DNA of 64,000 nucleotides from Rhodanobacteraceae bacterium (GCA_016713135.1 JADJPR010000015.1:29080-93079); one strand, 5' to 3'. Positions 4,211 through 63,745 are shown, numbered from the stretch's first letter. Notes: a model not told the origin generated them from the letters alone. Numbers and translations: made by a program.

Positions 4211-4415
4211 GGGTTGTGGGTTCTGGGTTGTGGGTTGTGGGCGGCAACAGCCCGGTGTGCTGAAGCGCTTGCGGGAGCGGCTTCAGCCACCATTTTTCGC
4301 GCTGAGCCGGGGAAAGATCGCCGACAGAGTCGGCTCCGACGGGCCACGGCGTGCGAGCTTCGCTGCCACAACCCACAACCCACAACCCACAACCCACAAC
4401 CAGAACCCACAACCC
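4211..4415. repeat. Family-A element A1: (GGGTTGT)n arm, REP-doublet core, (ACAACCC)n arm
   Basis: Left arm 4211-4241 gggttgtgggttctgggttgtgggttgtggg. Right arm 4366-4415 ccacaacccacaaccc... is its complement. Core contains gggagcggcttcagcc and gatcgccgacagagtcggctcc. Starts 1 nt after the prpF-like stop. Confidence 0.9.
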
Positions 4416-4475
4416 TCAGACCCCATACCTGTGCCACAGTCCCGCCTTCCACCCACCAACCCGATCGAGCACCCC

Positions 4476-5198
4476 ATGGCCGACCCCATTCGCCTGTCCA
4501 GGCATCTCGCCGCGATGCTGCCGTGCTCGCGCCGGGAGGCGGAGCTTTACATCGCCGGCGGCTGGGTGAGGGTGGATGGGGTGGTCGTCGAGGAACCCCA
4601 GTTCCGCATCACCGATCAGAAGGTGGAACTGGACCTTGGTGCGCAGGCCGAGCCGGCGTTGCCGGCGAGCATGCTCTGGCACAAGCCCGCGGGCGTGGAC
4701 GCCGATGCGCCGGCTGATCCGGCATCGCCGCTGATCCAGCCAGGTTCGCGCGCCGCGGACGATGCCTCGGGGGTTCGGCTGCTGCGCCGCCACTTCACCC
4801 ACCTGGAATCGGTGGTGCCGATCGACGCCGCGGCCAGCGGTCTGGTCGTGCTGACCCAGGACCGCCACCTGGCGCGCAAGCTCAAGGATGACTTCGCGCG
4901 CTTCGAGCAGGAGTACGTCGTCGAGGTCAGCGGCGACATGCCGGCCGATGGCCTGGCGCGGCTGCAGCGCGGCGCGGGCATCCAGCCCTACGGTCCGGCA
5001 GCGATCAAGGCCAGTTGGCAAAGCGAAAAGCGCCTGCGCATCGCCGCCAAGGCGATCCGCCCGGGCCAGGTGCGCCAGATGTGCGAGGCGGTCGGGCTCC
5101 AGGTGGTCGCCATGCGCCGGATTCGCGTCGGGCGGCTGCCGATGGCCAGGCTGGCGGTGGGCGAGTGGCGGTACCTGGCTCCGGACGAGCGGTTGTAG
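4476..5198 (+). CDS. RsuA/RluF-family pseudouridine synthase (S4 domain plus catalytic domain)
   Basis: MADPIRLSRHLAAMLPCSRREAELYIAGGWVRVDG (S4-like). The PIDAAASGLVVLT motif carries the catalytic Asp. The 5' part of ORF 4134..5198 is translated repeat A1. Confidence 0.8.
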   Translation: MADPIRLSRHLAAMLPCSRREAELYIAGGWVRVDGVVVEEPQFRITDQKVELDLGAQAEPALPASMLWHKPAGVDADAPADPASPLIQPGSRAADDASGVRLLRRHFTHLESVVPIDAAASGLVVLTQDRHLARKLKDDFARFEQEYVVEVSGDMPADGLARLQRGAGIQPYGPAAIKASWQSEKRLRIAAKAIRPGQVRQMCEAVGLQVVAMRRIRVGRLPMARLAVGEWRYLAPDERL

Positions 5199-5209
5199 CT
5201 TGGAATCGA

Positions 5210-5362
5210 GTTGTGGGTTGTGGGTTCTGGGTTGTGGGCAGCAAGAGCGCGGGCGGCGGGGGCTAGTCGCCGGCTGCTTCTGCGCACGAATTCACGCAGT
5301 GGCTCCGGACTGGCCGCACCCAGCTTTGGCTGCCCACAACCCAGAACCCACAACCCACAACC
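5210..5362. repeat. Family-A element A2
   Basis: 5210-5238 gttgtgggttgtgggttctgggttgtggg is the perfect 29-nt reverse complement of 5334-5362. Diverged 94-nt core. Confidence 0.9.
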
Positions 5363-5398
5363 ATCAGAATCCCCTGGCGCACAACCGAACGATCACCA

Positions 5399-7282
5399 TC
5401 ACACCACCGCCAGATCCCCCTTGGTCTCCAGCCATTCGCGGCGGTCGCTGGCGCGCTTCTTGGCGAGCAGCATGTCGAGCATGCCGTCGGTGCCGTCGGC
5501 GTCGTCGATGGTCAGCTGCACCAGGCGGCGGGTGTCGGGGTGCATGGTGGATTCGCGTAGCTGCTGCGGATTCATCTCGCCGAGGCCCTTGAAGCGGGTC
5601 ACGTTGACCTGGCCCTTGATCTTCTCGCGCGCGACGCGTTCCAGCAGTTCGGTCTTCTCGCTCTCGTCGAGCGCGTAGAACACCTGTTTGCCCACGTCCA
5701 CGCGGAACAGCGGCGGCATCGCGACGAACACGTGGCCGGCCTGCACCAGGCTGCGGAAGTGGCGCTGGAACAGGGCCGAGAGCAGGGTGGCGATGTGCAG
5801 GCCGTCCGAGTCGGCATCGGCCAGGATGACGATCTTGCCGTAGCGCAGCCCGGACAGATCCGGCTTGCCGGGGTCGAGGCCGATCGCGACCGCCAGGTCG
5901 TGCACTTCCTGCGAGGCCAGCACCGAGGTCGATTCGACTTCCCAGGTGTTCAGGATCTTGCCGCGCAGCGGCAGGATCGCCTGGAACTCGCGCTCGCGCG
6001 CCTGCTTGGCCGAGCCGCCGGCGGAATCGCCCTCGACCAGGAACAGCTCGGTGCGCCCGAGGTCCTGCGAGGCGCAGTCGGCCAGCTTGCCGGGCAGGGC
6101 CGGGCCGCTGGTGACCTTCTTGCGCACCACCTGCTTCTCGGTTTTCAGGCGTGCCTGCGCGCGCTCGATCGCGAGCATCGCGATCTTCTCGCCGAGTTCG
6201 GTGTGCTGGTTCAGCCACAGGCTGAAGGCGTCATGGATCACGCCCTGCACGAAGGGCGCGGCGGTGCGCGAGGACAGGCGCTCCTTGGTCTGCCCGGCGA
6301 ACTGCGGATCCTGCTGCTTGAACGAGAACACGAAACTTAAGCGCTCCCAGATGTCCTCGGGTGCCAGCTTTACTCCGCGCGGCAACAGGTTGCGGAACTC
6401 GCAGAACTCGCGGATTGCGTCGGTCAGCCCGGAGCGCAGGCCGTTGACGTGGGTGCCGCCCTGCGCCGTCGGGATCAGGTTGACGTAGCTTTCCTGGATC
6501 AGCTCGCCCTCGGGCGTCCAGCCGATCGCCCAGTCGGCGGCCTCGGTGGTCTTCTTGATCGCGCCGGTGAAGAGGTCGGCTGGGATCACCTCGCGGTCGG
6601 CCAGTTGCGAGCGCAGGTAGTCCTTGAGCCCGTCCTCGTAGTACCAGCGCTCGGTCTCGTTGGTCGATTCGTCCCACAACGTGACCGTCAGCCCCGGGCA
6701 AAGCACCGCCTTGGCACGCAGCACGTGGCGCAGCCGTGGCATCGACAGCTTGGGCGTGTCGAAATACTTCGCGTCCGGCCAGAAGCGCACCTTGGTGCCG
6801 GTGTTCTTCTTGCCGACGGGACCGACCACGCGCAGCGGCGTGGCCGGGTCGCCGTGCGCAAAGCCGATCGAAAACTCCTGCGCATCGCGCTTGATCGTGA
6901 CCTCGACGCGCTCGCTGAGCGCGTTGACCACCGACACGCCCACGCCGTGCAGGCCGCCCGAGAAGTTGTAGTTCTGGTTCGAGAATTTCCCGCCCGCGTG
7001 CAGCCGGCACATGATCAGCTCGACGCCGGGCACCCCGTGCTCGGGATGGATGTCCACCGGCATGCCGCGGCCGTCATCGATGACCTCGATCGAGCCATCG
7101 TTCCAGACCCGGACCTCGATGTTCTTCGCGTAGCCACTCAGCGCCTCGTCCACCGAGTTGTCCACGACCTCCTGCACCAGGTGATTCGGGCGCGTGGTGT
7201 CGGTGTACATGCCCGGCCGGCGCTTGACCGGCTCCAGGCCTTGCAGGACTTCGATATCGGCAGCGTTGTAGCGGGCGGTCAT
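5399..7282 (-). CDS. parE: DNA topoisomerase IV subunit B
   Basis: GHKL ATPase motifs (VVDNSVDEA, DDGRGMP, GGLHGVG) and Toprim EGDSAGG. About 627 aa without the GyrB insertion. ATG at 7282 (MTARYNAADIEVL); the upstream part of ORF ..7468 is translated repeat A3. Confidence 0.95.
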   Translation of the reverse strand: MTARYNAADIEVLQGLEPVKRRPGMYTDTTRPNHLVQEVVDNSVDEALSGYAKNIEVRVWNDGSIEVIDDGRGMPVDIHPEHGVPGVELIMCRLHAGGKFSNQNYNFSGGLHGVGVSVVNALSERVEVTIKRDAQEFSIGFAHGDPATPLRVVGPVGKKNTGTKVRFWPDAKYFDTPKLSMPRLRHVLRAKAVLCPGLTVTLWDESTNETERWYYEDGLKDYLRSQLADREVIPADLFTGAIKKTTEAADWAIGWTPEGELIQESYVNLIPTAQGGTHVNGLRSGLTDAIREFCEFRNLLPRGVKLAPEDIWERLSFVFSFKQQDPQFAGQTKERLSSRTAAPFVQGVIHDAFSLWLNQHTELGEKIAMLAIERAQARLKTEKQVVRKKVTSGPALPGKLADCASQDLGRTELFLVEGDSAGGSAKQAREREFQAILPLRGKILNTWEVESTSVLASQEVHDLAVAIGLDPGKPDLSGLRYGKIVILADADSDGLHIATLLSALFQRHFRSLVQAGHVFVAMPPLFRVDVGKQVFYALDESEKTELLERVAREKIKGQVNVTRFKGLGEMNPQQLRESTMHPDTRRLVQLTIDDADGTDGMLDMLLAKKRASDRREWLETKGDLAVV

Positions 7283-7347
7283 CGGGTGTGCGGCGGGTTG
7301 CGTTGGGCCGGCATGCTGCAGCGTGCGGGGCGGGGAAGCAACCGGCT

Positions 7348-7525
7348 GGTTGTGGGTTGTGGGTTGTGGGCCGCGAGCTCGCACACCGCAGCCATGTGGG
7401 AGCCGACTCTGTCCGCGATCTCTTCCTGGCGGCCGCCGACAAGAGATCGCGGCTGAAGCCGCTCCCACCGGCTATCGGCACCCAGGCTCTTGCCGCCCAC
7501 AACCCACAACCCAGAACCCAGAACC
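7348..7525. repeat. Family-A element A3 (core inverted relative to A1)
   Basis: Left arm 7348-7370 ggttgtgggttgtgggttgtggg. Right arm 7496-7525 cccacaacccacaacccagaacccagaacc. The reverse complement of the core aligns with the A1 core (gtgggagcggcttcagccgcgatc ... gacagagtcggctcccac). Confidence 0.9.
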
Positions 7526-7559
7526 AAAGAAAAGGCCCCGGAGTCTCCCCCGGGGCCTT
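7524..7559 (-). terminator. Rho-independent terminator of the 1021-aa gene
   Basis: Perfect 10-bp stem aaggccccgg/ccggggcctt (7532-7541, 7550-7559) with an 8-nt loop. Followed on the minus strand by TTTTCTTTGG. Confidence 0.8.
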
Positions 7560-7593
7560 CAGTTACCGCAGTGTGGCTAGATGGCTAGCCGCA

Positions 7594-10500
7594 TCAACCA
7601 TCCGTGCGCAGGCTGACGGTGTCGACCCGGAAGGTCGTCGCCAGCGAGCTGTCGGTGGAGCCGACGAAGCGGATGCGCACGTTCTTGCCCTTGTGCGCCA
7701 CGACGTTGTAGCTGCGCTGCACGTAGGTGGACGCGTTGGTGGTCTTGTTGACGTTCGACAGGGTCACCAGGGTCTGCAGCACCGCGTTCGTGCTCGCATC
7801 GACCAGCTGCACGGTCAGCTTGTCATAAGCCGTCGTGGTGGTGGTCTCGCTGGTCACGATCGAGGTGTAGAAGCTCAGCGTGGCCTGGGTCGCGCCGGCC
7901 GGGATCAGCGTGGGCTGGCTCTGCACCGTCTGCGAGCTGGTGGTCGCATTGACGCCGAGGTAGGCATAGCTGCCACCGGTGTTGGCATTGGTCTGGCCGG
8001 CCAGCAGGGTGTTGAACGAGGTGCCGGTCGAGGCCGAGCGGGCCCAGGAACCATCCGGCGCCGAGTTGGTGCTGGTGGTGATCGTGTCGAAGTTACCGTT
8101 GGCCAGCTTCTCGGTGACCGTGCCGCCGCCACCGCCGCCGGTGGTCCAGGAGGCCGTCACGTTGAAGGTCAGGGTGCCGGTGGCGTAGCCGTAGACGCGG
8201 ACGTAGTAGGTGCCGACGGTCGGCGTGGCGAAGGTGCAGGTCTCATTGCCCGAGCCAGTGTACGGACGGCAGTCGTATACCGTCAGCGTGGCCTGGGCGC
8301 CGGCCTTCACATACAGGTCGACGTCGCCCGACGCACCGCTGGTGGCGATGGTCAGGTTGGACGCACCGGACGGGATCGCCACGGTGTAGTCCTTCCAGCT
8401 GCTGTTGGCACTGGTGGAGTTGGTGGAACCCGCGGAAGCCACGCCGTTGCTCAGCGCGGTGGCGCCGCCGGTGGTCGCCGTGCCAGTGAAGTTCTGGCCG
8501 GTGCTGTTGGCGCTGGAGATCGTCACCGAACGGTTGGCCGGGCTGAAGGTGTAACCCGACAGCGACGGGGTGACGGTGTAGCTGCCATTGGCCAGGCCGG
8601 AGATGGTGTAGGCGCCGGTGCTGCTGGTGGTCGCGCTGGCCGAGCCGGTGCTGACGGTGACGCCCGAGATGCCGGTGCCGCCGCTGGTGGTCACGGAGCC
8701 GGAGATGCTGTAGGTCGTGGTCGTCGCGGTGCCGGTGAAGTTCTGGCCGGTGACGTTGCTGCTGCCGATGGTCACGGCGCGGTTGACCGGGCTGAAGGTG
8801 TAGCCCGAACGGGTCGGCGTGATCGTGTAGCTGCCGGAGGCCAGGTTGGCCAGGGTGTAGTTGCCGCTCGAATCGGTGGTGGTGGAGACCGAGCCGGTGC
8901 TCACGGTGACGCTGCCGATGCCGACGCCGGTGCTGGTGGTGACCTGGCCGGAGATCGAGTAGGTGGTCACGGTGCCGCCGCAGTTGCTGAACTTGAAGTC
9001 GCGGGCGCGGGTGGACCAGCTGCCACTCGGGCGGTACATGCCGATGGTCCAGAAGGTGCAGTCGTCCACCGGATCGACCACCGTCTGGTGGTAGTCGCCC
9101 CAGCGGCCGGAGGTCTCGGCGGCGGCGCCGGCGGCGATCACGTTCTCACCCTGGGTCATCACGCCCAGCGCGTCGGTGACCAGGCGGCCGGTGTACTGCA
9201 GCGAGGCATAGGTGGTCGGCGTGGTGGTGCGGCTGACGTTGTAGCTCATGCCGATGTTGCCCATCTTGTCGGTCGCCGCGGCGCCGAGCAGGTGATGGGT
9301 GCTGCTGTCGCCCGGGCTGAAGGTGCCTTCCTGGTGCAGCGTCCAGTTGCCGCCGCCGGTGCGGCGCAGTTCGAACCAGCGCACGCCGGAGTCGACCACG
9401 GTGCCGCTGCGCGCGGTGTTCTGGTTGGTCGCGAAGGTGCCCACGATGGTCTCGTAGGAGCCCATGTTGCGGTAGTTCATCAGGTTCAGGATGACTTCGC
9501 GGATCGGGTCGAGGCGCGAGGTCGAACCCGGCTGCGGCACGGTGTCGAACGAGGAGTAGTCGCGGAACCAGCTGTTGAACTCGGTGATCTGGATGCGCGG
9601 CAGGGTGGTGATGCTGCTGCTCGACGGCGTGGTCCAGTTGAAGTTGAGCTGGTATAGGTCGATGAAGTCGGCGGTGGTGTTGGCGCCGGTGCCCGCATGG
9701 GCTTCGTCATCGTTGTGGCGGGCCAGGATCGCACCCGAGCCGGCCGGCGGGGCCGTGGTGCCCATGAACGAGGCCGGGGTCAGCGCCTGGAAGCCATAGC
9801 CCGAGAGCTTGGCGACACTGGTGAAGCGCTGCGCGGCGCGCGCGGTGGCGCCATTCAGCATGTTTGCGCGGTCGAAGGCATAGACCTTGGCGCCGCTGCC
9901 AGATTCGTTGGCGGTGCAGACGTAAGCGTCGCCCCACACACCGCAATGCGGGTAGTCGGGCAGCGCCGGGGTGGCGAAGCCGTAGAACCACCAGCCGCCG
10001 GAGACCGGGTCGGAGGTCTTCGACACGTAGGTGCACAGGCGGTTGGCGCTGGAGGTGCCGCCCATTTCGAGCATGAACCAGCGGTTCGCGAGGCGATCGA
10101 ACAGGATGATCGGATCCGACACCGAGGTGGCACAGGGATCGCCGGCCGGGGCCAGCGACTTGAAGGTGGTCGGGCCGGACACCAGTGTGCCGGACTTGTT
10201 GTACACCTTGAAGGTGGTGCCGGACGAGCTGTTGATGCCGTACAGGATGTGGTTCGTGCCGACTTCGATCACCGGGTCGCCAGGGCTGACGCCGGTATTG
10301 CCGTTGTCGATGTTGATGCGAGCCGGGCCGCGGAACGACACGTCGCCGGCGCTGCGCGAGCTGCTGTCGAACAGCGCCTGCAACTCGCCCAGGCGGTCGG
10401 GGGCGGTAGTCCAGTCGGCCGGCGCATGCGGCGCGCGGGCGTCCAGCGGGTGATACACGCGGCGCTGGGCTTCGCGAATGGGCTGGCCGGGTTGCCACAT

Positions 10501-10659: not shown

Positions 10660-10781
10660 GGATATCGTTCCTGAATGAGTAAGAACTGGATCAAGTGCTG
10701 CTCTCGATGGTCACTTGTCGCAGTCATGGTCCCTGGGAGCGTCTCATCGAGTTCCCCGCCTCGCTGTCCCAACTCCGGCCG

Positions 10782-11907: not shown

Positions 11908-12058
11908 GCCACGAGGTCAAGAGGGCACGAGGGCACGAGGGCACGCCAGGACCTCATCCCAGGCCCGGCCTCGTCTCACCGCGATAGCGGTTGAAAAACA
12001 AGCACAATCAGTTACTTGCAAAGGTCCAGACGAGAGCGAGCCTTTTCGTGCCCTCGCG
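11908..12058. repeat. Family-D element D1: (GAGGGCAC)n arm, conserved ~100-nt core, CGTGCCCTCGCG arm
   Basis: gagggcacgagggcacgagggcacg at 11921-11945. The core is ~75% identical to the D2 core, including agcacaatcagttacttgcaa. The right arm ends at 12058 and directly abuts the yceH stop codon (12059-12061). Confidence 0.9.
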
Positions 12059-12727
12059 TCAGACCTCAGCCCCGAGGTCCCGCAGCGCCGCGGTCAGTCG
12101 CGCTACCTGGGCTTCCAGCGCGCTGACGCGGTCGCCCAATGCGCTGCCGCCGGAATGGCCTTCGCTGTCGTCGCCGCGGCGCATCTCGGCGGCGGCGCGC
12201 TCGGCGTGCTCACTGCCGCACAGCAAGTGCATGTAGCGCTCGACGCTTTGCCCCGGCTGCAACGGCAGTCGAGTTGCGAGGGCCGGCTGGCGGCGGGTCA
12301 GGCGGTCCAGGGTGTCCTTGACCTGTTCGATGTCGCTGAACTTCGCCAGGCGTTCGGCCCGGGTCATCAGTTCGCTCGGTGTCTGCGGCCCGCGCAGCAG
12401 CAACAGGCAGAGGATTGCGCGCTGCGGTGGCGTCAGGGTGTAGATCTCCTCGAAGCGGTGCTCGTAGCGCAGGGCGCGCGGCGAGTGCTGGACCCGCACC
12501 AGTTTCTTGTCTTCCAGTGTGCGCAGCGCATGCCCGACGGCGCCAAGTTCCAGTTCCATCACCGGCTCGCGCGCGGTCTTCTGGTTGGCCGCGACCATCG
12601 CCGCGTTGGCGGTCAACGGGTATTGGTCCGGCGTGGTCAGCGCCTTTTCGACCAGGCACCCGAGCACGCGTGCCTCGATGTCGGAGAGTTGCGGAATCGT
12701 CGGGGCGGTGGGTGCGGAGTCGGTCAT
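12059..12727 (-). CDS. yceH: YceH/DUF480 family protein
   Basis: LSDIEARVLGCLVEKALTTPDQYPLTANA...NQKT.REPVM and the ERYMHL motif align along the full length with E. coli YceH. ATG at 12727. Confidence 0.9.
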   Translation of the reverse strand: MTDSAPTAPTIPQLSDIEARVLGCLVEKALTTPDQYPLTANAAMVAANQKTAREPVMELELGAVGHALRTLEDKKLVRVQHSPRALRYEHRFEEIYTLTPPQRAILCLLLLRGPQTPSELMTRAERLAKFSDIEQVKDTLDRLTRRQPALATRLPLQPGQSVERYMHLLCGSEHAERAAAEMRRGDDSEGHSGGSALGDRVSALEAQVARLTAALRDLGAEV

Positions 12728-12875
12728 GGTGGAGTTCCGGTGGTGGATGCCACCGAGAGTAGCGAATGCGCTGCGGTGCGGCGAGACGTTGCAGCACAAG
12801 CCGACCCGCTGACCTGCCAGCGGAGCGTCCGGGAGGGCTAGACTGGCGCCCCCGAACCGCCGCCGAGCGCCCCCC

Positions 12876-14429: not shown

Positions 14430-14707
14430 GCGGGGCAGGGGGCAAGGGGGCAGGGGACCTGTTTTGCGGCTTTGCGGATGCAATGAGGTGAGACGCGGCA
14501 CTGGGCCTTGAGTCCAGAGCGGCTACGCGGCCAGGTCACTGCGGCAAGCCATTCCCCTTGCCACGTGACCCTTGACCCGCCTTTCATCCCCGCGCAGACC
14601 CGGTTCAGACATGTCCCGCTAGCGTCCGCGGGGCCTGGAATCCAAACCGCGGCGCGGCCAGGCCAGCGCGGCAAGCCTTTTCCCCTGCCCCCTGACCCTT
14701 GCCCCGC
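14430..14707. repeat. Family-B element B1: (GGGGCA)n arm, core, C-rich arm, with duplicated right half
   Basis: Left arm 14430-14457 gcggggcagggggcaagggggcagggga. Complementary arms at 14553-14580 and 14681-14707. The 56-nt segments 14526-14581 and 14653-14708 are direct repeats. Confidence 0.88.
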
Positions 14708-19261: not shown

Positions 19262-19411
19262 CAAAAGTGAAAAGTGAAACGTAAAACGTCAATTCGCCCC
19301 GCGCCCATTGACGTTTTCCGTTTCACGTTTGACCTTGCTTGCGGAGGAACAACTTCTGGCATCAGATCCGGCCCAGGCCCATTGACGTTTCACGTTTGAC
19401 TCTGCTTGCGG
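19262..19411. repeat. Family-F element F1: (GTGAAAA/C)n hairpin with duplicated right half
   Basis: gtgaaacgtaaaacgtcaat (19274-19293) pairs with attgacgttttccgtttcac (19307-19326), one mismatch, 13-nt loop. gcccattgacg...tttcacgtttgac.ctgcttgcgg occurs twice (19303-19344, 19377-19411). Confidence 0.85.
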
Positions 19412-25744: not shown

Positions 25745-25822
25745 GGGGGTAGGCCGGTGTATCGCGCGGCGATTCACCGGCGTGAGCGCCGGGGAGGCGC
25801 GCTGCGCCACCCCGGCCTACGC
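25745..25822. repeat. REP pair of the GTAGGCCGG type (BIME-like)
   Basis: ggggtaggccggtgtatcgcgcggcgattcaccggc and, inverted, gcgcgctgcgccaccccggcctacgc. Two REP-like units in head-to-head orientation between convergent genes. Confidence 0.75.
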
Positions 25823-33069: not shown

Positions 33070-33206
33070 GCGGGGCAGGGGGCAGGGGGCAAGGGGAATT
33101 GCCAAGGCTTCGGACATGCCCCGGATTCATGGCCGAGCGCCTCCATTCGCCCCAGTGGGGTTCGAGCCTTGAGGCAGCGGCCCCTGCCCCTTGCCCCTTG
33201 CCCCGC
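33070..33206. repeat. Family-B element B2
   Basis: Left arm gcggggcagggggcagggggcaagggga (33070-33097). Right arm cccctgccccttgccccttgccccgc (33181-33206). Fills the lysC/lysA to PP-loop intergenic gap. Confidence 0.9.
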
Positions 33207-34568: not shown

Positions 34569-34796
34569 GGTTGTCGGTAGGCGGTTGTGTCGGCAGCAGC
34601 CGATGTGCCCTGAGCCCGTGGGAGCGGCTTCAGCCGCGATCTTTTCCCGGCGGCTGCTGGAGAAGATCGCCGACAGAGTCGGCTCCCACAGGTGTGTCGG
34701 TGTTCGAGCCTTGCTGCCCAGAACCCAGAACCCACAACCCACAACCCACAACCCACAACCCACAACCCACAACCCACAACCCACAACCCACAACCC
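34569..34796. repeat. Family-A element A4 with asymmetric arm expansion
   Basis: Degenerate left arm ggttgtcggtaggcggttgtgtcgg. REP doublet 34618-34689 (gtgggagcggcttcagccgcgatc ... gatcgccgacagagtcggctcccac). Right arm 34717-34796 is about 11 heptamers of CCCA(C/G)AA. Confidence 0.9.
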
Positions 34797-38575: not shown

Positions 38576-38576
38576 A

Positions 38577-38710
38577 CGCGGAGACGCGGAGGGCGCGGAG
38601 AAAAGGCCGCGGAAAGCGTCTGGGAGTGGGCTCCAGGGAAATTCCGAAACGCTAGTGTGGTGTTCCGTAATTACCTTGAATTATTTCCGCGCCTTTTGCG
38701 CCGATGCGGC
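38577..38710. repeat. Element H1: (GCGGAGAC/GCGGAGGG)n arm with partner arm about 70 nt downstream
   Basis: acgcggagacgcggagggcgcggagaaaaggccgcggaaagcg (38576-38618). aaaaggccgcggaaa pairs with tttccgcgcctttt (38684-38697). Starts 1 nt after the hydrolase stop. Confidence 0.7.
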
Positions 38711-38890
38711 GTTGCTCGTCGTCGCCATAGCCCTGCTATGACCTCCGGTTCCGGCCCGCAACCAGTTGCGGGCGTTCAAGCCGGCGCGCGGCATGCCGCG
38801 CAAGCCGCCGGCTTTCACCCTCCTCTCGCCTTGCCTCGCCGCAAAATTCATCGGAAATTTCTTCAACTAAATTACGGAACACCACACTAG
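38652..38890. mobile_element. MITE-like element, 239 bp, perfect 21-bp terminal inverted repeats
   Basis: ctagtgtggtgttccgtaatt (38652-38672) is the exact reverse complement of aattacggaacaccacactag (38870-38890). Both ends carry CTAG. The interior has no ORF and is locally AT-richer. Confidence 0.55.
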
Positions 38891-38916
38891 GTGCCCTCTC
38901 GTGCAGGGGGCTGTCT

Positions 38917-39067
38917 GTGGGAGCGGCTTCAGCCGCGATCTTTTCCCTGCGGCGGCTGGAAAGGTCGCCGACAGAGTCGGCTCCCACAGGCTGGCGGTGT
39001 GCAGGCTCTGCTGCCCACAACCCACAACCCACAACCCACAACCCGCCCACAAACCCACAACCCGCCC
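38917..39067. repeat. Family-A element A5 (REP doublet plus right arm only)
   Basis: gtgggagcggcttcagccgcgatc...gtcgccgacagagtcggctcccac, then cccacaacccacaacccacaacccacaacccgcccacaaacccacaaccc (39014-39067). The left heptamer arm is missing next to the MITE-like element. Confidence 0.88.
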
Positions 39068-39574: not shown

Positions 39575-39613
39575 GTGGTGAAAAGTGAAGAGTGAAAAGT
39601 GAAAAGTGAAACG
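39575..39613. repeat. Family-F half element F2: (GTGAAAA)n arm
   Basis: gtggtgaaaagtgaagagtgaaaagtgaaaagtgaaacg begins 2 nt after the stop codon. No complementary arm follows; instead it runs into a terminator hairpin. Confidence 0.8.
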
Positions 39614-39643
39614 AAAAGGGCGGCGCGATGCGCCGCCCTTTTC
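39614..39643. terminator. Bidirectional rho-independent terminator (membrane protein gene / fadA)
   Basis: aaaagggcggcgc-gat-gcgccgcccttttc: GC stem flanked by an A-run and a T-run, so it can act on both strands. Confidence 0.8.
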
Positions 39644-39665
39644 GGGTTGCAGCGATGTGCCTTGT

Positions 39666-40862: not shown

Positions 40863-40969
40863 TTCTTGCGTCTCCGTTTGGAGGGCGAGGTGCGTCGGCG
40901 CACCTCGCCTTGTTGGTTGGTTTGTCGCGGAGCGGCTGGAAAACGGCCGCTCGCTGCGCTCGCTCAAAC

Positions 40970-41069
40970 GGAAAATGGAAAAGGGTAGAAGCAGAAGCGA
41001 AAAGCAGAAAACTCGCGCCGGGCAGCTTTCCCTTTTTCCATTTTCCCTTTCCCCTTTTCCTGCCTTTCC
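40970..41069. repeat. Element G1: purine-rich (GGAAAA-type) arm and pyrimidine-rich arm between the fadB-like gene and fadA
   Basis: ggaaaatggaaaaggg (40970-40985) pairs with ccctttttccattttcc (41031-41047). The pyrimidine tract continues to the fadB-like stop codon (41069-41071). Confidence 0.75.
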
Positions 41070-43445
41070 TAGTTCCTCAGCGGCTTCCCGTTCTGCATCG
41101 TGTACGCGATGCGGGCCTGGGTCTTGGGCATCTGCGCCAGGGCGACGAAATGCTTGCGCTCGAGGGTGAGCAGCCATTCCTCGTCGACTTCCGAACCTCG
41201 CTCGACCTCGCCGCCGCACAGCACGTTGGCGATGCGGGTGGCGACTTCGACGTCGTGCTCGGAGACGAATCCACCGGCCTGCATGTTGGTCAGCAGAGCG
41301 CGGATGGTTGCGATGCCGACGTCGCCGGCGACCCGAATGGCGCGCGGCGGCAATGGCGGGCGGTAGCCGGATTCGGCCATCGCGCGCGCCTCGTTCTTCG
41401 CCACGTACAGCAGCTCGTCCTTGTTGGCGATGATCAGATCGCCCGCACGCGCCAGCTTGAGTTCCCTTGGCTTCGTGCGCGCTGGTCGCGACCTTGGCCA
41501 TCGCGATGGTCTCGAACACGGTCTGGATCTGGCCGAAGACGTCGCCGCCGATCGCCGCATTGGCACAGCGCAGTGCGAATTCCTTGAGGCCGCCGCCGGC
41601 GGGGAGCAGGCCGACACCGGCCTCGACCAGGCCAACGTAGCTCTCCAGCGCGAACACGGTCTTGGCCGAATGCATCTGGAACTCGCAGCCGCCGCCGAAG
41701 GCCATGCCGCGCACCGCCGAGACCACCGGCACCAGCGAGTACTTGATGCGCTGGCTGGCGGCCTGGAAGCTGGCGACGATCTGCTCGAACTCATCCCACT
41801 TGCCGGCAGCCACCACCGGCAGCGCGTCCTTCAAGTCGGCGCCGGCCGAGAAGGGCTCTCGGGTCTGCCAGATCACCAGCGCCTTCCAGTTGCGCTCGGC
41901 TTCGTCGACGGCGCGGTTGACGCCCTCGAGGACGCTGGCGCCGATGGTGTTCATCTTGCTCTTGAACGACAGGATCGCGATGTCGTCGCCCTGGTGCCAC
42001 AGGCGCACGCCGTCGGTCTCGAAGATCGTGGTGCCCTGGTCGAAAGCTTCGGTGTAGATCGCGTCCGGGAAGTACTGGCGCTGGTACACCGGCAGCGAGG
42101 AGCGCGGGCGCAGTCCGTTGATCGACGGCGCAAACGAACCTTCCGCGGCGTGCACGCCGGCATCGCCGCGTGCCAGCACCCAGGCCGGAAGCGGCGCGTC
42201 CGACATGGTCTTGCCGTCGGCGATTTCCTCGGCGATCCACTGCGCCACCTGCGTCCAGCCCGCCTGCTGCCAGATCTCGAACGGGCCCTGGTCCCAGCCG
42301 TAGCCCCAGCGGATGGCGAAGTCCACGTCGCGCGCATTGTCGGCGATGTGTTCCAGCTGATAGGCGCAGTAGTGAAACAGGTCGCGGAAGCAGGACCACA
42401 TGAACTGCGCCTGCGGATCGCTGGACCCGCGCAGCGCGGCGAGGCGCGCGCCCCAGCCCTTCTGGCGCAGCGCGCCTTCGGCATCGGCGCTGGCCTCGGC
42501 ATTCGACGGCTTGTAGCTGCAGCTGGCGACGTCGAGGACCTCGATGACCTTGCCGTTCTTGCGGAAGAAGCCGGCCCCGGTCTTCTGCCCAAGCGCGCCC
42601 TGGGAGATCAGGCCCTTGAGCCACTCCGGCGCCTTGAAGTACTTGTGCCAGGGATCGTTCGGCAGGGTGTCGTCCATGGTCTTGATGACGTGCGCCATGG
42701 TGTCCAGGCCGACCACGTCGCTGGTGCGGTAGGTGGCGCTCTTCGGACGGCCGATCAGCGGCCCCGTCAGCGCATCGACCTCGTCGAAACCGAGGCCGAA
42801 AGCCTGCGTGTGGTGCATCGTCGCGGCGATCGAGAACACGCCGATGCGGTTGCCGATGAAGTTCGGCGTGTCCTTGGCGCGCACCACGCGCTTGCCCAGC
42901 GTGGTGGTGACGTAGGACTCGAGCTTGTCCATCGTGGCCGGGTCGGTGCTCGCGGTCGGGATCAGCTCGACCAGGAACATGTAGCGCGGCGGGTTGAAGA
43001 AATGAATGCCGCAGAAGCGCGGACGCAGTGCCTCGGGCAGCGCTTCGGAGAGCGCGGTGATCGACAGGCCGGAGGTGTTGCTGGCGAGGATCGCGCGCTC
43101 GCTGATGTAGGGCGCGATCTTCTCGTACAGCGAGCGCTTGATGTCCATGCGCTCGGCGACTGCCTCGATGATCAGATCGCAGCCGCGAAGCAGTTCGAGG
43201 TGGTCGTCGTAGTTGGCACCGACGATCTCGGCGGGCACACCCTTGGTCGCCACCGGCGACGGGCTGAGCTTGCCCAGGTTGGCGATCGCCTTGTCGACCA
43301 GGCCGTTGCGCGGACCTTCCTTGGCGGGAAGCTCGAACAGGACGGCGGGGACGCCGGAATTGACCAGGTGAGCGGCGATCTGCGCGCCCATCACGCCGGC
43401 GCCGAGGACGGCGGCCTTGCGGACGAGAAGCTTGTTCTCAGGCAT
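41069..43445 (-). pseudogene. Fused 3-hydroxyacyl-CoA dehydrogenase / enoyl-CoA hydratase (about 791 aa, FadB-like), frame broken by a 1-nt insertion at 41464-41466
   Basis: N-terminus MPENKLLVRKAAVLGAGVMGAQIA (NAD-binding) through ...MAKVATSAHEAK in one frame. The homologous continuation ELKLARAGDLIIANKDELLYVAK...QNGKPLRN is in ORF 41069..41794. The junction is aag-g-gaa (CCC run on the + strand). 2377 nt minus 1 gives 792 codons. Confidence 0.85.
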
Positions 43446-43786
43446 GTGCACCTCGAAAGCTTGGAGACAGCGGGGAGGGAATCCGACGATACGCCGTTGC
43501 CGCCCGGTCGGCAGGGCGAGGGCGCCATCGGCATCGACGTCGCCGGCGACTATACGCCCGCGTATGGAGGGCAACAATGCAGGAGGCGGGTGAATCGCTG
43601 CTGACATTGGAGCCAATGCTCGAACTTGCTGCATTGCCGCAGAAACCGTCGATTCGTTAGACTTTGCCACACAATCGCCGCTCAAGTCCGCGATTCTGCG
43701 GGCCTTCCGTGCTAGTCTCCCGCCGTTTTCAGGCCGGGACGGGCGGCGTGCCCTCCCAACCATTCCTTTGACATGGAGTCGTCAAC

Positions 43787-49112: not shown

Positions 49113-49206
49113 GCGGGGCAGGGGGCAGGGGGCAGGAGACCGGGCTTCGCCGCATGGTTGAACCGTGCTGCGAGTTTCGTCCCTTGCCCCCTGACCCCTT
49201 CCCCGC
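49113..49206. repeat. Family-B element B3 (short core)
   Basis: Left arm gcggggcagggggcagggggcagga (49113-49137). Right arm tcccttgccccctgaccccttccccgc (49180-49206). Confidence 0.88.
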
Positions 49207-49242: not shown

Positions 49243-50631
49243 ATGTTGCCCGTCGTTGCACTGGTCGGCCGCCCGAATGTCGGCAAGTCCACCCTCTACA
49301 ACTCGCTGACCAAGAGCCGCGACGCTATCGTCTCGGACATGCCGGGCGTCACGCGCGACCGCCTGTTCGGCATCTGCCGCCGCGGCGAGCGGCCATTCAT
49401 GGTGGTCGATACCGCCGGCCTGACCGAGAACGAGGACGTCCTCGCGAAGGGCATGGCGGCGCAGTCCTGGCAGGCCATCGAAGAGTCCGACCTGGTCTGC
49501 CTGGTGGTCGACGCGCGCGATGGCATCAACCCGGATGACCTGGAGATTGCCCAGCGCATCCGTACCACTGGCCGGCCGATGCTGCTGGTGGTGAACAAGA
49601 TCGACGGCGTCAACGAAGACAATGTGCGCGCGGAATTCTCGCGCCTGGGGATTGCCGGCACGCTGCTGATCTCGGCGGCCCACAACCAGGGCATCGCCGA
49701 TTTCGTCGAGGAAGTGTTGACGCGCCTGCCGGCGGATTCGGTCGAGCCAGAGGCCGACGATGGTGTCATCCGCATCGCGATCATCGGCCGCCCGAATGTG
49801 GGCAAGTCGACCCTGGTCAACCGCCTGCTCGGCGAAGAACGGGTGCTGGCGATGGACCTGCCCGGCACCACCCGCGATGCGGTGCGTGTGCCGCTGGAGC
49901 GCGATGGGCGCAAGTACCGGCTGATCGACACCGCCGGCATCCGGCGCAAGGCGCGGGTGGGCGAGGGCGTCGAGAAGTTCAGCGTGATCAAGGCGCTGCA
50001 GGCGGCGGTCGAGGCGCATGTGGTGATTCTGATGCTGGATGCGCAGCAGGGCTTCGCCGATCAGGACGCACACCTGCTCGGCGAGATCGTCGAGGCTGGC
50101 CGCGGCCTGGTGCTGGCGATGAACAAGTGGGATGGCCTCTCCGTGCGCGAGCGCACCCAGGTGAATTCGCGCCTGGACTGGGGCTTGTCCTTCGTCAATT
50201 TCGCCAAGCGTCTGCCGATCTCCGCGCTGCACGGCTCCGGCCTCGGCGAACTGATGAAGGCAGTCAACCAGGCGCACAAGGCGGCGACCCGCGAGTTCTC
50301 CGCAAACGAACTGACCAAGGCGATCAACGAGGCCTTCGAGAAGCACCAGCCGCCGATGGTGCGCGGCCGCGTGGCGAAGATGCGCTACGCCCACCAGGGC
50401 GGCCGCAATCCGCCGCGCGTGATCATCCACGGCTCACGCCTGAAGGATTTGCCGGACGCCTACAAGCGCTACCTGGAAAACTCCCTGCGCGACAAGTTCC
50501 GCCTCACCGGCACCCCGCTCGCACTGGAATTCCGTGAAGGCGCCAACCCCTACGCCGACAAGAAGAACGTCCTCACCCCACGCCAGGTCGAGAAGCGCAA
50601 GCGGCTGATGCGGCATGTGAAGAAGGGGTAG
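49243..50631 (+). CDS. der: Ribosome-associated GTPase Der (EngA)
   Basis: Two G domains, each with GRPNVGKST, plus a KH-like C-terminus. Confidence 0.96.
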   Translation: MLPVVALVGRPNVGKSTLYNSLTKSRDAIVSDMPGVTRDRLFGICRRGERPFMVVDTAGLTENEDVLAKGMAAQSWQAIEESDLVCLVVDARDGINPDDLEIAQRIRTTGRPMLLVVNKIDGVNEDNVRAEFSRLGIAGTLLISAAHNQGIADFVEEVLTRLPADSVEPEADDGVIRIAIIGRPNVGKSTLVNRLLGEERVLAMDLPGTTRDAVRVPLERDGRKYRLIDTAGIRRKARVGEGVEKFSVIKALQAAVEAHVVILMLDAQQGFADQDAHLLGEIVEAGRGLVLAMNKWDGLSVRERTQVNSRLDWGLSFVNFAKRLPISALHGSGLGELMKAVNQAHKAATREFSANELTKAINEAFEKHQPPMVRGRVAKMRYAHQGGRNPPRVIIHGSRLKDLPDAYKRYLENSLRDKFRLTGTPLALEFREGANPYADKKNVLTPRQVEKRKRLMRHVKKG

Positions 50632-50825
50632 GGCGTCAGGAGGGCACGAGGGCACGCCAAGACCTTATCCCAGATCCAGCCTCGCACACTGCGGGAGTGG
50701 TTGGAAAGTCAGCACAATCAGTTACTTGCAATGGTTCCCGAGATCGCGAGCCTTTTCGGCCCTCGCGCCCTCGCGCCCTCGCGCCCTCGCGCCCTCGCGC
50801 CCTCGCGCCCTCGCGCCCTCGCGCC
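50631..50825. repeat. Family-D element D2: 2 GAGGGCAC units, conserved core, 8 CCCTCGCG units
   Basis: ggagggcacgagggcacg (50639-50656). Core 50657-50757 is homologous to D1. (ccctcgcg)x8 spans 50760-50825 and abuts the stop (50826-50828) of the convergent BNR gene. The left end touches the der stop. Confidence 0.92.
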
Positions 50826-53906: not shown

Positions 53907-54021
53907 GGACCTGTGTCCAGTCGGCTACAACTGCGGAGGCGCGAGCATATCCCGTTGGATCTCCCCACCCTACGCGTTCGCATGACGCGAAATGTCGAAA
54001 TCCGTCCGGACAGCAACTCTT

Positions 54022-54163
54022 GTCCGCAAAGGACGCAAAGGACGCGAAGGAAGCAAGTGCGAGATCAAGCAGAACGGCGAGTTGGTGCCGTGATGGCATT
54101 CCGGGGCTCATGCCCGACGCCAGGCAGTTGATTTTCTTTGCGTCCTTTGCGTCCTTTGCGGAC
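54022..54163. repeat. Element E1: (GCAAAGGAC)n arm, core, (GTCCTTTGC)n arm
   Basis: gtccgcaaaggacgcaaaggacgcgaaggaagcaa (54022-54056) against ttgattttctttgcgtcctttgcgtcctttgcggac (54128-54163). The outer 23 nt are perfectly complementary. Lies in a divergent promoter region. Confidence 0.9.
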
Positions 54164-54256
54164 GAGAAATGATCTTTCCCTGGCCCCGAAGCCGGCACCC
54201 GGGAGTCGCGGCAGCCGGCACCCACCCGCGACCACGGTTTCTGGCATCGTTGGCCC

Positions 54257-56640: not shown

Positions 56641-56695
56641 ACTGGAAGCGCCGGCATTCTTGCTGGCTGCGCGAGCCTGCCGAAACCGGTGCTGG

Positions 56696-56968: not shown

Positions 56969-57162
56969 CGCGCGCGCCCTGCGCTTCGGGTTCGTTGCAG
57001 GCCATGGTTCGGCAACCTTCGATGACTGATGGGTGCAAGCCTAGCCGATGACCCCCGAACTGGCAGCCTCCGGCTTCTGCGACCCGAGTCCCGAGTTCAG
57101 GTACTCCGTGCATAATTCCGCGCTCACTCTTCTGGGCCGCGCTCCGGTGCGGGCAAACATCC

Positions 57163-58029: not shown

Positions 58030-58063
58030 ACTGCGCGCCGATCGACCGCACGGTTTTTCCCCA

Positions 58064-61681: not shown

Positions 61682-61730
61682 AGCCTCCAGCCGCAACTTT
61701 GAGCTAAGCTGCGGACTCGGAGGTGCCTGG

Positions 61731-61940
61731 ATGAAACTGACATTCGAGGTCGAGCAGGAACTGGACGGCCGCTGGATCGCCGAAGTGCCTGAACTGCCCG
61801 GCGTTCTCGCTTATGGGGTGTCTGGTGCCGAGGCGATGGCCCGGGCGGAAGCACTCGCGCTGCGCGTACTTGCCGAACGCATTGAACATGGCGAGGTCGT
61901 CCCCATGGCGTTGCAGATCGAGCTTCCCACGGCGGCATGA
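61731..61940 (+). CDS. hicB: HicB-family antitoxin (short, UPF0150 domain only)
   Basis: RBS ggagg. MKLTFEVEQELDGRWIAEVPELPGVLAYGVSGAEAMARAEALALRVLAERIE. 69 aa with no DNA-binding extension. Confidence 0.8.
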   Translation: MKLTFEVEQELDGRWIAEVPELPGVLAYGVSGAEAMARAEALALRVLAERIEHGEVVPMALQIELPTAA

Positions 61941-62149
61941 GCACCTGGCCATCAGTGAGAGCGCGCGTGCTGCTTCACGCGCTCCTGCGAAAGGGCTGGG
62001 TGGTCAAACGGCAATCGGGGTCGCACCGGACACTCGCACATCCCGATTGGCCCGACTACACATTTCCGTTCCACGATGGCGACGAAATCGGGCCACGCAT
62101 GCTCGCCCGCGTGGCCAAACACACGGGTCTGGAGCCTTCGGATCTGTAG
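61937..62149 (+). CDS. hicA: HicA-family mRNA interferase toxin
   Basis: ATGA overlap with hicB. LLRKGWVVKRQSGSHRTLAHP is the HicA/YcfA signature. 70 aa. Confidence 0.8.
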   Translation: MSTWPSVRARVLLHALLRKGWVVKRQSGSHRTLAHPDWPDYTFPFHDGDEIGPRMLARVAKHTGLEPSDL

Positions 62150-62177
62150 ACGGACCCGGGCGTTCGCGCGAAGCGCC

Positions 62178-63641
62178 TCACCGCCCCCGCCGCGTGAACA
62201 GCAGGTACACCGCCGCGGCGACGATCAGGCCGACGAACCAGGCGTAGGTATAGATCGACACGAAGACCGCGGGAACGTCGGCGACGAAGCCGGCAGCCTT
62301 GAGGAAGCCCGGCAGGTTGGGCAGCACGCCAATCACCAGCGCGAGGATCGCCACCGGGTTCCAGCCGCTGCGATAGGCATACGCGCCCTTGTGGCGGAAC
62401 AGCGAGGCAATGTCGAGTTCGGTGCGGCGGATGATGAAATAGTCGGCCAGCATGATCCCGGCGATCGGACCCAGCAGCGCCGAATACCCGATCAGCCAGG
62501 TGAAGATGTAGGCGCCGGTCGACTCCAGCAGCTTCCACGGGAAGATCGCGATGCCGATGCCGGCGGTGATGTAGCCGCCGAGCTTGAACGAGATCTTCCC
62601 GGGCGCGAGGTTGGAGAAGCCGTAGGCCGGCGCCACCACATTGGCTGCCAGGTTGGTGGTCAGTGTCGCCAGCAGCAGGGCTGTCAGGGCGACCACCACC
62701 GCGGCGCCGCCCATGCGTCCGGTCAGCGCCACCGGATCCCAGATCGCCTCGCCGTAGATGATCACGGTGGCTGAGGTCACCGCGACGCCGACGAAGGCCA
62801 GCAGCGCCATCGGCAGTGGCAGTCCGATTACCTGGCCGACGATCTGGTCGCGCTGGCTCTTCGCGAAGCGCGTGAAATCGGGGATGTTCAGCGCCAGGGT
62901 GGCCCAGAAGCCCACCATCGCCGTCAGCGAAGGCCAGAAGGTGCCCCAGAACTGGCCCGCCTTGGGCTGGCCATCGGCGAACTGCGACGGGGTCGAGAGC
63001 ATCGGGCCGAAGCCGCCGGCCTTGACGTAGGCCCAGCCGAGCAGCGCCAGGCACATTGCGATCAGCAACGGCGCGGCCCACAGCTCCAGCCAGCGGATCG
63101 ACTCGGTGCCGTACTTGATGAACACCACATGCAGGGCCCAGAAGGCGAGGAAACACACCGTCTGCCCGGCATCGATGCCGAGCAGCGGCAGCTTGCTGCC
63201 GACGATGGCATCGCCCGTGACCACGTTGACGATGGTGTAGATCGCCGCACCGCCCACCCAGGTCTGGATGCCGAACCAGCCGCAAGCGACCAGCCCGCGC
63301 AGCACTGCCGGCAACTTGGCCCCGCGCACGCCGAAGGAGGCGCGCAGCAGTACCGGGAAGGGGATGCCGTGCTTGGCGCCGGCATGGCCGATCAGCAACA
63401 TCGGGATCAGCACGATCACGTTCGCGATCAGGATCGTCCCGACCGCCTCGCGCCAGGACATGCCCTCGCTGACCATGCCGGCCGCCAGCATGTAGGCCGG
63501 CACGCACACCACCATGCCCACCCACAGCGCGGCGATCGCCTTCCAGTCCCAGGTGCGCGCCGCCGGGGCGCTGGGCAACAGGTCCGCGTTCATCAGGTCG
63601 AAGTCGCCAAGGACCTTGGTGGGGGCTGGGGCTCCGCTCAT
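62178..63641 (-). CDS. NCS1-family nucleobase/allantoin/hydantoin:cation symporter
   Basis: DLLPS....RTW.W..IAALW......VP.Y.LA, then GHAGAKHGIPFPVLLRASFG and WFGIQTW motifs. ATG 63641. Confidence 0.88.
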   Translation of the reverse strand: MSGAPAPTKVLGDFDLMNADLLPSAPAARTWDWKAIAALWVGMVVCVPAYMLAAGMVSEGMSWREAVGTILIANVIVLIPMLLIGHAGAKHGIPFPVLLRASFGVRGAKLPAVLRGLVACGWFGIQTWVGGAAIYTIVNVVTGDAIVGSKLPLLGIDAGQTVCFLAFWALHVVFIKYGTESIRWLELWAAPLLIAMCLALLGWAYVKAGGFGPMLSTPSQFADGQPKAGQFWGTFWPSLTAMVGFWATLALNIPDFTRFAKSQRDQIVGQVIGLPLPMALLAFVGVAVTSATVIIYGEAIWDPVALTGRMGGAAVVVALTALLLATLTTNLAANVVAPAYGFSNLAPGKISFKLGGYITAGIGIAIFPWKLLESTGAYIFTWLIGYSALLGPIAGIMLADYFIIRRTELDIASLFRHKGAYAYRSGWNPVAILALVIGVLPNLPGFLKAAGFVADVPAVFVSIYTYAWFVGLIVAAAVYLLFTRRGR

Positions 63642-63684
63642 CAGACTGGCTCCGCGCGCTGTCGTTTCGATCCTGCGGAAAGTA

Positions 63685-63745
63685 CGCAAAGGACCGTGCC
63701 GACGCAAAGGGTCCTGCGCCGTTCAACGCGGAGACGCGGAGAACG
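63685..63745. repeat. Short E-like and H-like tandem units in the NCS1 upstream region
   Basis: gcaaaggaccgtgccgacgcaaagggtcc (E-type unit GCAAAGGAC), then acgcggagacgcggagaacg (H-type unit GCGGAGAC). Confidence 0.6.

Follow-up and report, generated by a model that had tools for sequence, protein, structure and literature searches.

The closest described counterparts of the repeats discussed here are the GGGAATC arrays of Xanthomonas, of which about 185 occur per genome (Rehm et al. 2015, PLoS One, PMC4692102). About 75-80% of these arrays lie in close pairs, one per strand, giving 70-75 convergent (G-first) pairs per genome; 89-93% are intergenic, at a mean of 28 nt from the nearer open reading frame (ORF), with a depletion between divergent ORFs. 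Array length and copy number vary across Xanthomonas species, and that study found no function. In a 64,000-nt stretch of a Rhodanobacteraceae bacterium (GCA_016713135.1, JADJPR010000015.1:29080-93079; hereafter the window, meaning the whole stretch analyzed), we find intergenic hairpin elements of related build, in which a tandem array of a short unit, a core, and a complementary tandem array follow one another, the G-rich array lying to the left in every pair. They resemble the Xanthomonas pairs in belonging to the same order (Xanthomonadales/Lysobacterales), in their tandem G-rich units of ~7 nt with convergent pairing, and in lying between genes, close to ORF ends and rarely between divergent ORFs. 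They differ in that the GGGAATC/GGGANTN unit is absent from the window elements, and in that Rehm et al. treat one unit as a G-quadruplex (G4) motif, whereas at least eight units occur here, most of them unable to form G4. Cores, termini, family structure, family replacement, and a general polarity rule are not part of their account (PMC4692102).

A second precedent comes from filamentous cyanobacteria, where intergenic hairpins formed by 7-bp short tandemly repeated repetitive (STRR) sequences, for example between hupS and hupL, were noted long ago; they have no established function, a part in transcript stability or termination having been suggested (PMC2670836). Our elements share with STRR the pairing of intergenic tandem 7-nt repeats into a hairpin, and in the cyanobacterium Stigonema (contig L104) the G/T-rich arm again comes first; they differ in phylum and in units, and the STRR literature found, as far as its accessible text goes, states neither a polarity rule nor a proteobacterial link. 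With the repetitive extragenic palindromic (REP) sequences, their bacterial interspersed mosaic elements (BIMEs), and the REP doublets forming hairpins (REPINs), they have in common that they are extragenic, abundant, and placed at gene 3' ends and between cistrons, that inverted doublets fold into long hairpins, and that no target duplication is seen. Each strand of a REPIN has a 5' GTAG-type tag ahead of its hairpin and hence an intrinsic polarity, which offers a precedent for polarity borne by the element itself. Classical REPINs differ in lacking microsatellite arms, and families B, C, D, E, F, and G described below lack a REP-like core. Bacterial MITEs (miniature inverted-repeat transposable elements), such as Correia, ERIC, RUP, and Nezha, are likewise small, noncoding, dispersed, intergenic, bounded by terminal inverted repeats, and polymorphic for presence or absence, and they can serve as terminators or RNA-processing sites; their inverted termini, in contrast, are fixed and related to a parent insertion sequence (IS), and they make target-site duplications, whereas neither a parent IS nor a duplication was found here. 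In eukaryotes, the Foldback (FB) transposons of Drosophila have long inverted arms of short tandem subrepeats, unequal and variable in length, around a heterogeneous central loop, with conserved outer termini; they are of kilobase scale, with a known transposase and target duplications. The likeness in arms, loop, and termini is an analogy only and implies no homology.

A first-pass annotation of the window, made from the sequence alone, had been aware of no description of such hairpins. The Xanthomonas pairs (PMC4692102) and the cyanobacterial STRR hairpins (PMC2670836) contradict this; the kind has already been reported and is not a new class. A literature search on the arm sequences returned no relevant paper, and we found no paper stating polarity as a rule, uniting different units, or describing cores and termini. 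What seems unreported is the presence of many unit families together, the continued occupation of sites while families swap, and a near-absolute G-first rule that extends across phyla.

Arm pairs were sought in three ways: with Tandem Repeats Finder (TRF), with an inverted-repeat finder, and with a script looking for the reverse complement of each tandem array at most 350 nt away. Twelve loci (A1, A2, A3, B1, B2, B3, C1, D1, D2, E1, F1, and G1) are clear complementary tandem-arm pairs around a core. TRF periods in the window are 6-9 and 14, with copy numbers from 2 to 11, and at least eight unit types, 6-14 nt long, coexist in this one genome. The first-pass annotation had counted at least 16 loci of a single architecture; the architecture stands, and the count comes down to 12 to 14, the left arm of A4 being decayed, that of A5 not recognizable, the complement of H1 partial, and F2 and the array at 63726 single. 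When a stem of at least 16 and a loop no longer than 250 are required, the window has 15 hairpins, against a mean of ~2.8 and a maximum of 7 in 20 dinucleotide shuffles. Ten of the 15 are flagged elements, the remainder being short hairpins within coding sequence whose composition is neutral or skewed to C. The observation of a common architecture is substantially right and statistically solid. An assembly artefact was ruled out, as the same elements recur in isolate genomes and in assemblies obtained independently from ENA, Logan, and NCBI. All elements lie outside genes, as had been claimed, on a map built from codon-usage log-odds with domain annotations taken from syntenic relatives. They are, by position in the window:

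A1, 4211-4415: (GGGTTGT)4.4, a core with a REP doublet, and (CCACAAC)7.3; begins 1 nt past the stop of the PrpF-like gene and is flanked by two plus-strand genes.
A2, 5210-5362: arms (GTTGTGG)4 and (CCCACAA)4, 39 nt and 95% complementary, with a GGGTTCT variant unit mirrored; inner stem as in the other A elements, core different and without a REP doublet; between the convergent pseudouridine synthase gene and parE.
A3, 7348-7525: (GGTTGTG)3.3, a REP-doublet core inverted relative to A4 and A5, and (CCCACAA)4.3; beyond 7531-7560, where the minus-strand gene upstream has its canonical terminator.
D1, 11910-12061: (GAGGGCAC)4.5, a core homologous to that of D2, and a short GTGCCCTCGCG right arm of only ~1.3 units that abuts the stop of the DUF480 gene.
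B1, 14432-14705: arms (GGGGCAG)3.4 and (CCCCTGC)3.4, with a core of ~225 nt that contains an additional internal C-rich arm.
F1, 19263-19336: a GTGAAAA/GTAAAAC arm, a 13-nt loop, and the matching arm, 87% complementary over 30 nt; near 19380-19400 part of the right arm is present once more.
C1, 30119-30327: arms of (AGGTGAAGCGGGGG)n plus a G-run, with their complement, forming a near-perfect hairpin of ~210 nt (RNA folding free energy, dG, -162 kcal/mol) in a divergent promoter region.
B2, 33070-33206: arms (GGGGCAG)3.6 and (GCCCCTT)3.7; folds entirely as a single hairpin, with one plus-strand gene on either side.
A4, 34569-34796: GGTTGTC GGTAGGC GGTTGTG as a degenerate left arm, a core with a REP doublet, and (CCCACAA)11.4, the right arm being a G-free 80-nt tract that is largely unpaired.
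H1, 38576-38712: (ACGCGGAG)3 immediately past a stop codon; a sequence that complements it in part (TTTCCGCGCCTTTTGCGCC) follows ~90 nt downstream, so that H1 ranks as a weak member.
A5, 38900-39067: a REP-doublet core and a (CCCACAA)7 right arm, the left arm being absent or replaced; adjoins a MITE-like inverted repeat at 38652-38890.
F2, 39578-39611, plus strand: a single, unpaired (GTGAAAA)4.9 array between a stop codon and a canonical bidirectional terminator (39612-39644).
G1, 40966-41060: a GGAAAAG-like purine arm and a TTTCCCT-like arm; intercistronic between the fadB-like and thiolase genes, 8 nt past the fadB stop.
B3, 49113-49206: arms of (GGGGCAG)3 and the complement, with a core of 50 nt; in the gap from bamB to der.
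D2, 50640-50825: (GAGGGCAC)2, a core, and (GCCCTCGC)8.4; fills the gap between der and a convergent 1026-aa gene, with the right arm abutting the stop codon.
E1, 54018-54167: terminus TCTTGTCC, (GCAAAGGAC)3.6, a core, (GTCCTTTGC)2.8, and terminus GGACGAGA; in a divergent region upstream of moeA.
63726 array, 63726-63742, plus strand: a single (ACGCGGAG)2 array, for which no complementary arm was detected.

In every pair the G-rich arm lies on the left, with a left-arm GC skew of +0.2 to +1.0, and the first-pass contention that this polarity is not trivial is borne out. Because the window loci (INDEPENDENCE) are not independent and represent ~7 or 8 families, a sign test within the window amounts to ~2^-7. 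A wider search for (GGGTTGT)3, through 185,579 species genomes, gave at least 120 loci in many phyla, chosen for GGGTTGT arrays and so independently of polarity. Among the matches listed, these contain ~45 tandem-armed inverted pairs of many units (GTTGTGG, TAGGGTGA, GGTGAGA, AGTTATG, GTTAGTG, AGACTGTA, AGGAAAA, and others), and all skewed pairs are G-first, the exceptions being pairs that link one element's C arm to the following element's G arm. A census of hairpins with stems of at least 16 in ~1.07 Mb (the window plus the listed loci) gave 21 G-first against one C-first for tandem-like arms, the sole C-first case being an AT-rich low-complexity tract, and four G-first against six C-first for nontandem arms. 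In a metagenome collection, the C-first pattern (CCCACAA)2-N5-35-(TTGTGGG)2 had no match and its G-first mirror matched at four loci, numbers that are small but consistent. The G-first polarity is present in Proteobacteria, Bacteroidota, Gemmatimonadota, Chloroflexota, Acidobacteriota, and Cyanobacteria, the last including three clear G/T-first hairpins in the Stigonema contig. The invariant is a geometry at the level of DNA, with the G-rich strand running 5' to 3' towards the center on both sides, in a manner that may be likened to a pair of telomere-like arrays placed face to face. C1, E1, and L104:2247, which lie in divergent contexts, are also G-first, and the polarity looks like a property of the DNA element, independent of the direction of transcription. 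Single skewed arrays have their G strand directed away from the nearest ORF in 114 cases against 66, start or stop alike, on noisy ORF calling; this would follow if each single array were one half of a palindromic element and the element itself carried the polarity.

Two side observations may be added. In L104 (Stigonema sp.), at 2270-2430, a ~60-nt segment (gagccagcgctgcaggagggtctccctccgtaggcgactggcg) occurs twice in the core of a heptamer-armed hairpin, each time followed by gggttgttagttgt, which has the look of small repeats nested or duplicated within the element. Contigs L002, L004, and L006, from giant-virus metagenome-assembled genomes (MAGs) in IMG/VR, likewise contain (GGGTTGT)n arrays, with three consecutive 21-nt matches at 165-227 of L002.

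The elements of the window fall into families whose copies share more than the repeat unit. The cores of D1 and D2 align over their full length, and those of A1, A3, A4, and A5 are a REP doublet, GTGGGAGCGGCTTCAGCCGCGATC ... GATCGCCGACAGAGTCGGCTCCCAC, with 76-89% pairwise identity and A3 in the opposite orientation; the doublet starts GTGGGAGCGGCTTCAGCCGC, and the A cores begin with GTGG. Only these four cores have the REP/REPIN form, an imperfect palindrome 20-40 nt long that bears a 5' GTAG-like tag and occurs as an inverted doublet; A2 and families B to H do not. E-type copies at four nonorthologous loci in three lineages have common termini outside their arrays, laid out as CAT(T)TCTTGTCC, (GCAAAGGAC)n ... 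(GTCCTTTGC)n, and GGACAAGAAATG, with a terminal inverted sequence, and B-type copies share the ends GCGGGG ... CCCCGC(C)TTTC. Since the shared termini lie outside the arrays, the arrays are subterminal parts of discrete elements; the earlier idea of microsatellite arms in place of fixed termini does not hold for the E-type copies. No direct repeat, as a target-site duplication would leave, flanks the four E-type copies or the A, B, and D copies, and a plasmid BLAST with the A4 core gave no match. Where complementary arrays lie 0.3-6 kb apart, as they might around an autonomous element, the recognized pairs (in the window, L092, L104, and L131) join arms of neighboring elements and none clearly encloses a gene, the other pairs and the intervals between pairs not having been inspected. 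With same-family copies at unrelated intergenic sites, the comparison of sequences points to several families of small, noncoding, dispersed palindromic elements.

Relatives of the window, retrieved through Der, Ndk, and ParE, range in nucleotide identity from 98.5% down to ~84%, and they show how quickly these sites change. The right arm of D2 counts 8.4 units in the window, against ~3 in strains with 97-98% identity and from at least 8 to 11 in a 90-95% identical lineage, and its left arm has two or three units across strains; slippage of the arms, proposed in the first-pass annotation, is thus seen in orthologues. In the window all eight units of this right arm carry an identical C-for-T change. 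Four independent metagenome contigs of the 90-95% lineage, L014 (11515-11578), L015, L016, and L017, end within the D2 right arm, (GCCCTCGT)n, so such arrays are assembly breakpoints. Whole elements are exchanged as well. Contig L144 is 98.4% identical to the window, gapless over 7.9 kb, and has a B-type element of ~230 nt (7949-8182) exactly at the D2 position (window 50632-50825), next to the Der GTPase gene (49243-50631); the exchanged segment starts 4 nt past the der stop and takes in the convergent gene's stop codon, TAA in the window as against TGA in L144. The convergent F2 site holds a D-type element in L014 and a B-like hairpin in L142, the fadB-fadA site (G1 in the window) a GTGAGTA-type element in L014 and a paired F-type element in L147, and the bamB-der site (B3) an E-type element in L018-L021. 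In these last four contigs the D2 site is "empty" yet has a short G-first hairpin. In a sister species (L151, GCA_963853445.1), all five orthologous sites checked are occupied, three of them by another family: the A1 and A2 sites by A-like elements with the unit GGTTGTC/GACAACC in both arms, the A3 site by an F-type, the D1 site by a B-type, and the B1 site by an E-type element. At L151 11870-12170 and 12860-13110, the A-type units GGTTGTC/GACAACC replace GGGTTGT/ACAACCC in both arms, a family-wide unit change compensated on both sides; the same GGTTGTC unit occurs in the decayed left arm of A4. Across these comparisons the elements are gained, lost, or replaced within 1.6% to ~15% nucleotide divergence, and their two arms remain complementary even for variant units. 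The claim that the architecture is maintained while sequences change finds support at these orthologous sites.

We favor, by a modest degree, the interpretation that these are REPIN/MITE-like foldback elements carrying subterminal microsatellite, or variable-number tandem repeat (VNTR), arms. Each family would consist of a short terminal sequence peculiar to it (for example CATTTCTTGTCC), a first array with a unit of 6-14 nt, a core, and a second array mirroring the first, and would spread by a mechanism that makes no target-site duplication, perhaps single-strand or hairpin-based as for REPINs and their REP-associated tyrosine transposases (RAYTs), or by recombination. The arms would change in length by slipped-strand mispairing, and template switching within the hairpin could restore their complementarity. 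Transcribed elements would form very stable hairpins in 3' untranslated regions (UTRs) or between cistrons, which, like REP/BIME, may stop 3' exonucleases or terminate transcripts, incidentally rather than as a tightly selected function, and the polarity would be inherited from, or imposed by, the way the elements are made or moved. Slippage is visible in the strain comparison itself; transposition, arm-to-arm correction, and a role in RNA are steps that we infer.

An alternative that we judge unlikely is that these are dedicated transcript-end elements, either bidirectional terminators without a U-tract or 3'-end stabilizers, in which selection keeps a long G-first hairpin and leaves its sequence free. 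A gene 3' end borders 14 of the 16 loci, and of 22 intergenic gaps at least 90 nt long with such an end beside them 14 are occupied, compared with two of nine divergent gaps. Arms often abut stop codons, at 0 to 5 nt for A1, A4, D1, D2, H1, and F2 as first noted, although G1 lies at 8 nt and not at 0. The only convincing canonical terminators in the 60 kb scanned are the two adjoining A3 and F2, and terminator-like matches there equal the shuffle expectation. Given so few, the hairpins of the elements, which folded as RNA are extremely stable on both strands (dG -30 to -162 kcal/mol), could possibly end or stabilize transcripts. That orthologous sites stay occupied despite changes of family, and that even the "empty" D2 site has a short G-first hairpin, also speaks for this view. 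Against it, A3 lies downstream of a canonical terminator and the F2 array upstream of one, G1 and B3 are intercistronic, and C1 and E1 sit in divergent promoter regions. The elements do not have the form of intrinsic terminators, with loops of 13-230 nt and no T-run past the 3' arm. In 90-95% relatives nine of the 39 pairs of B3 are broken, and at this one locus (five sequences) none of the 39 is compensatory, which for B3 suggests little selection on RNA pairing. Folding does not consistently favor the transcribed strand: the sense strand is the more stable in four of five elements between minus-strand genes and in three of seven between plus-strand genes, and an RNA-level strand preference (G·U versus A·C) was dropped because no consistent pattern emerged. 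The copies with conserved termini at unrelated loci, moreover, imply spread and not local evolution. In other phyla, the contexts among the matches listed are 8-9 convergent, eight codirectional on the minus strand, four codirectional on the plus strand, and one divergent, with hairpins that fill the inter-ORF space and arms usually 0-30 nt from each ORF. The distribution in the window is that of REP/BIME-type repeats, accepted at the ends of genes and perhaps of some use in that position, and not that of dedicated structures. A switch in which the G arm folds as G4 and frees the C-rich arm for Rho entry at a Rho-utilization (rut) site, a G4 or rut switch having been suggested in the first-pass annotation, we consider very improbable. 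It draws on the fit of A, B, and C arms to the G3+N1-7 consensus, on the G4 formed in vitro by the related Xanthomonas repeats, and on the 80-nt G-free C-rich tract exposed by A4. G4 is not a shared feature, however, since the four or more G-runs needed occur only in A, B, C, and some D arms, whereas E, F, G, H, and most units of other phyla (AGTTATG, GTTAGTG, AGACTGTA, GGTGAGA) cannot form it; as a unifying feature or cause it was ruled out. A stretch of ~60-80 nt of unpaired, C-rich, G-poor RNA, as a rut site requires, is offered by the right arm of A4 and perhaps that of A5, the C arm being paired in the other elements. To our knowledge cyanobacteria lack Rho, and the same polarity in Stigonema and in divergent promoter regions such as those of C1 and E1, where transcripts would not hold the G arm first, speak against such a switch; avoidance of Rho as a general cause was ruled out on the same grounds.

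A further possibility, which we regard as still more doubtful than dedicated transcript ends, is an origin in place without mobility, in which a microsatellite expands beside a small hairpin, quasipalindrome template switching mirrors the changes, and the polarity reflects a directional bias. It would account for the copy-number variation, for a unit variant homogenized through an entire arm, for the variant units of A1 and A2 that recur at mirrored positions in the two arms, for the compensated change from GGGTTGT to GGTTGTC between sister species, and for a polarity specific to tandem-armed hairpins. It leaves unexplained the homologous cores and conserved outer termini at nonorthologous loci and the recurrence of one unit at many loci of one genome. 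Nor was a greater self-structure of G arms seen under standard DNA folding parameters (G4 not modeled). Two other ideas were also set aside: stop codons in all three frames supplied by the G arm hold for F, C, and many units of other phyla and fail for A, B, D, and E, and a Shine-Dalgarno-like or Chi-like nature of the units was dropped because those of this genome share no motif.

Several points weigh against the foldback-element interpretation that we favor. Alternative alleles swap the entire intergenic region, from stop codon to stop codon, which homologous recombination between strains would explain equally well, and among the relatives compared there is no clean pair of empty and filled sites with exact borders. 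Copies within the window are only 75-89% identical and give no sign of a recent burst. No transposase or RAYT gene was found, the 64 kb being the part of this genome that was covered, and the gene annotations of relatives for two window stretches contain no transposase domain. The occupation of all five sister-species sites, together with the rarity of canonical terminators, fits a selected function better than pure selfishness. Finally, the interpretation brings no demonstrated mechanism for the near-absolute G-first polarity. A replication-direction ratchet, in which slippage in the first-made arm would be copied into the second by fold-back, is kept as an idea only, as DNA folding gives the G arm no excess of structure. 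It is conceivable, although we would not expect it, that the elements represent a pan-bacterial class of tandem-armed foldback repeats with a strict DNA-level rule of G strand inward, arising from an unrecognized polar process of building or moving; selection on transcripts would not account for such a rule, given the divergent promoter regions and the Rho-less cyanobacterium. Candidates for such a process might be strand-specific HUH/RAYT-like processing that reiterates a 5' tag, or, at a break, the addition of units to 3' ends and then copying by fold-back.

Some further features of the window stand beside these elements. Between H1 and A5, a 29-nt inverted repeat (38652-38680 / 38862-38890, 90% complementary; CTAGTGTGGTGTTCCGTAATTACCTTGAA) bounds a 239-bp segment that resembles an ordinary MITE with fixed termini and that may have displaced the left arm of A5. 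Between convergent genes, at 25749-25820, a palindrome with 34-nt arms starts with GTAG and ends with CTAC, and is a classical REP-like element without tandem arms. The window has a composition of 68% G+C, and its genes are housekeeping in nature: prpF-like, pseudouridine synthase, parE, fumarase, an MscK-like channel, fadBA, ndk, rlmN, rodZ, bamB, der, moeA, and moeB. No match to Rfam reached the gathering score in the window, and a tRNA scan of it gave nothing. Positions 1-700 are very G+C-rich (75% over the first 2 kb), with several long GC-rich inverted repeats and, at 162-296, degenerate 63-nt and shorter GC repeats, and no confident gene precedes 680. The fadB-like gene (41069-43550, minus strand) shifts frame near 41465 by its third-position GC signal, and its protein is one intact 791-aa chain in all relatives; the change is a frameshift, from an assembly error or in a pseudogene. 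A 249-bp tandem duplication (8470-8955, two copies, 76% identity) within a 1021-aa gene, whose homologue in relatives has CarboxypepD_reg and PPC domains, probably corresponds to repeated protein domains. In L151, a 611-aa TPR/GGDEF gene (2621-4456) that has no counterpart in the window lies between the fumarase and DUF480 genes.

The elements matter first through their number, at about one per 4 kb of the window, where they fill most of the longer gaps at gene 3' ends. They break metagenome assemblies, and as the fastest-changing sequence between close strains they bear on strain typing by VNTR, on the assembly of MAGs, and on the annotation of 3' UTRs. If the polarity reflects how the elements are generated, it would give a simple, testable handle on how REP-like hairpin repeats arise and spread; if it reflects function, the elements would represent a widespread class of transcript-end structure without a U-tract.

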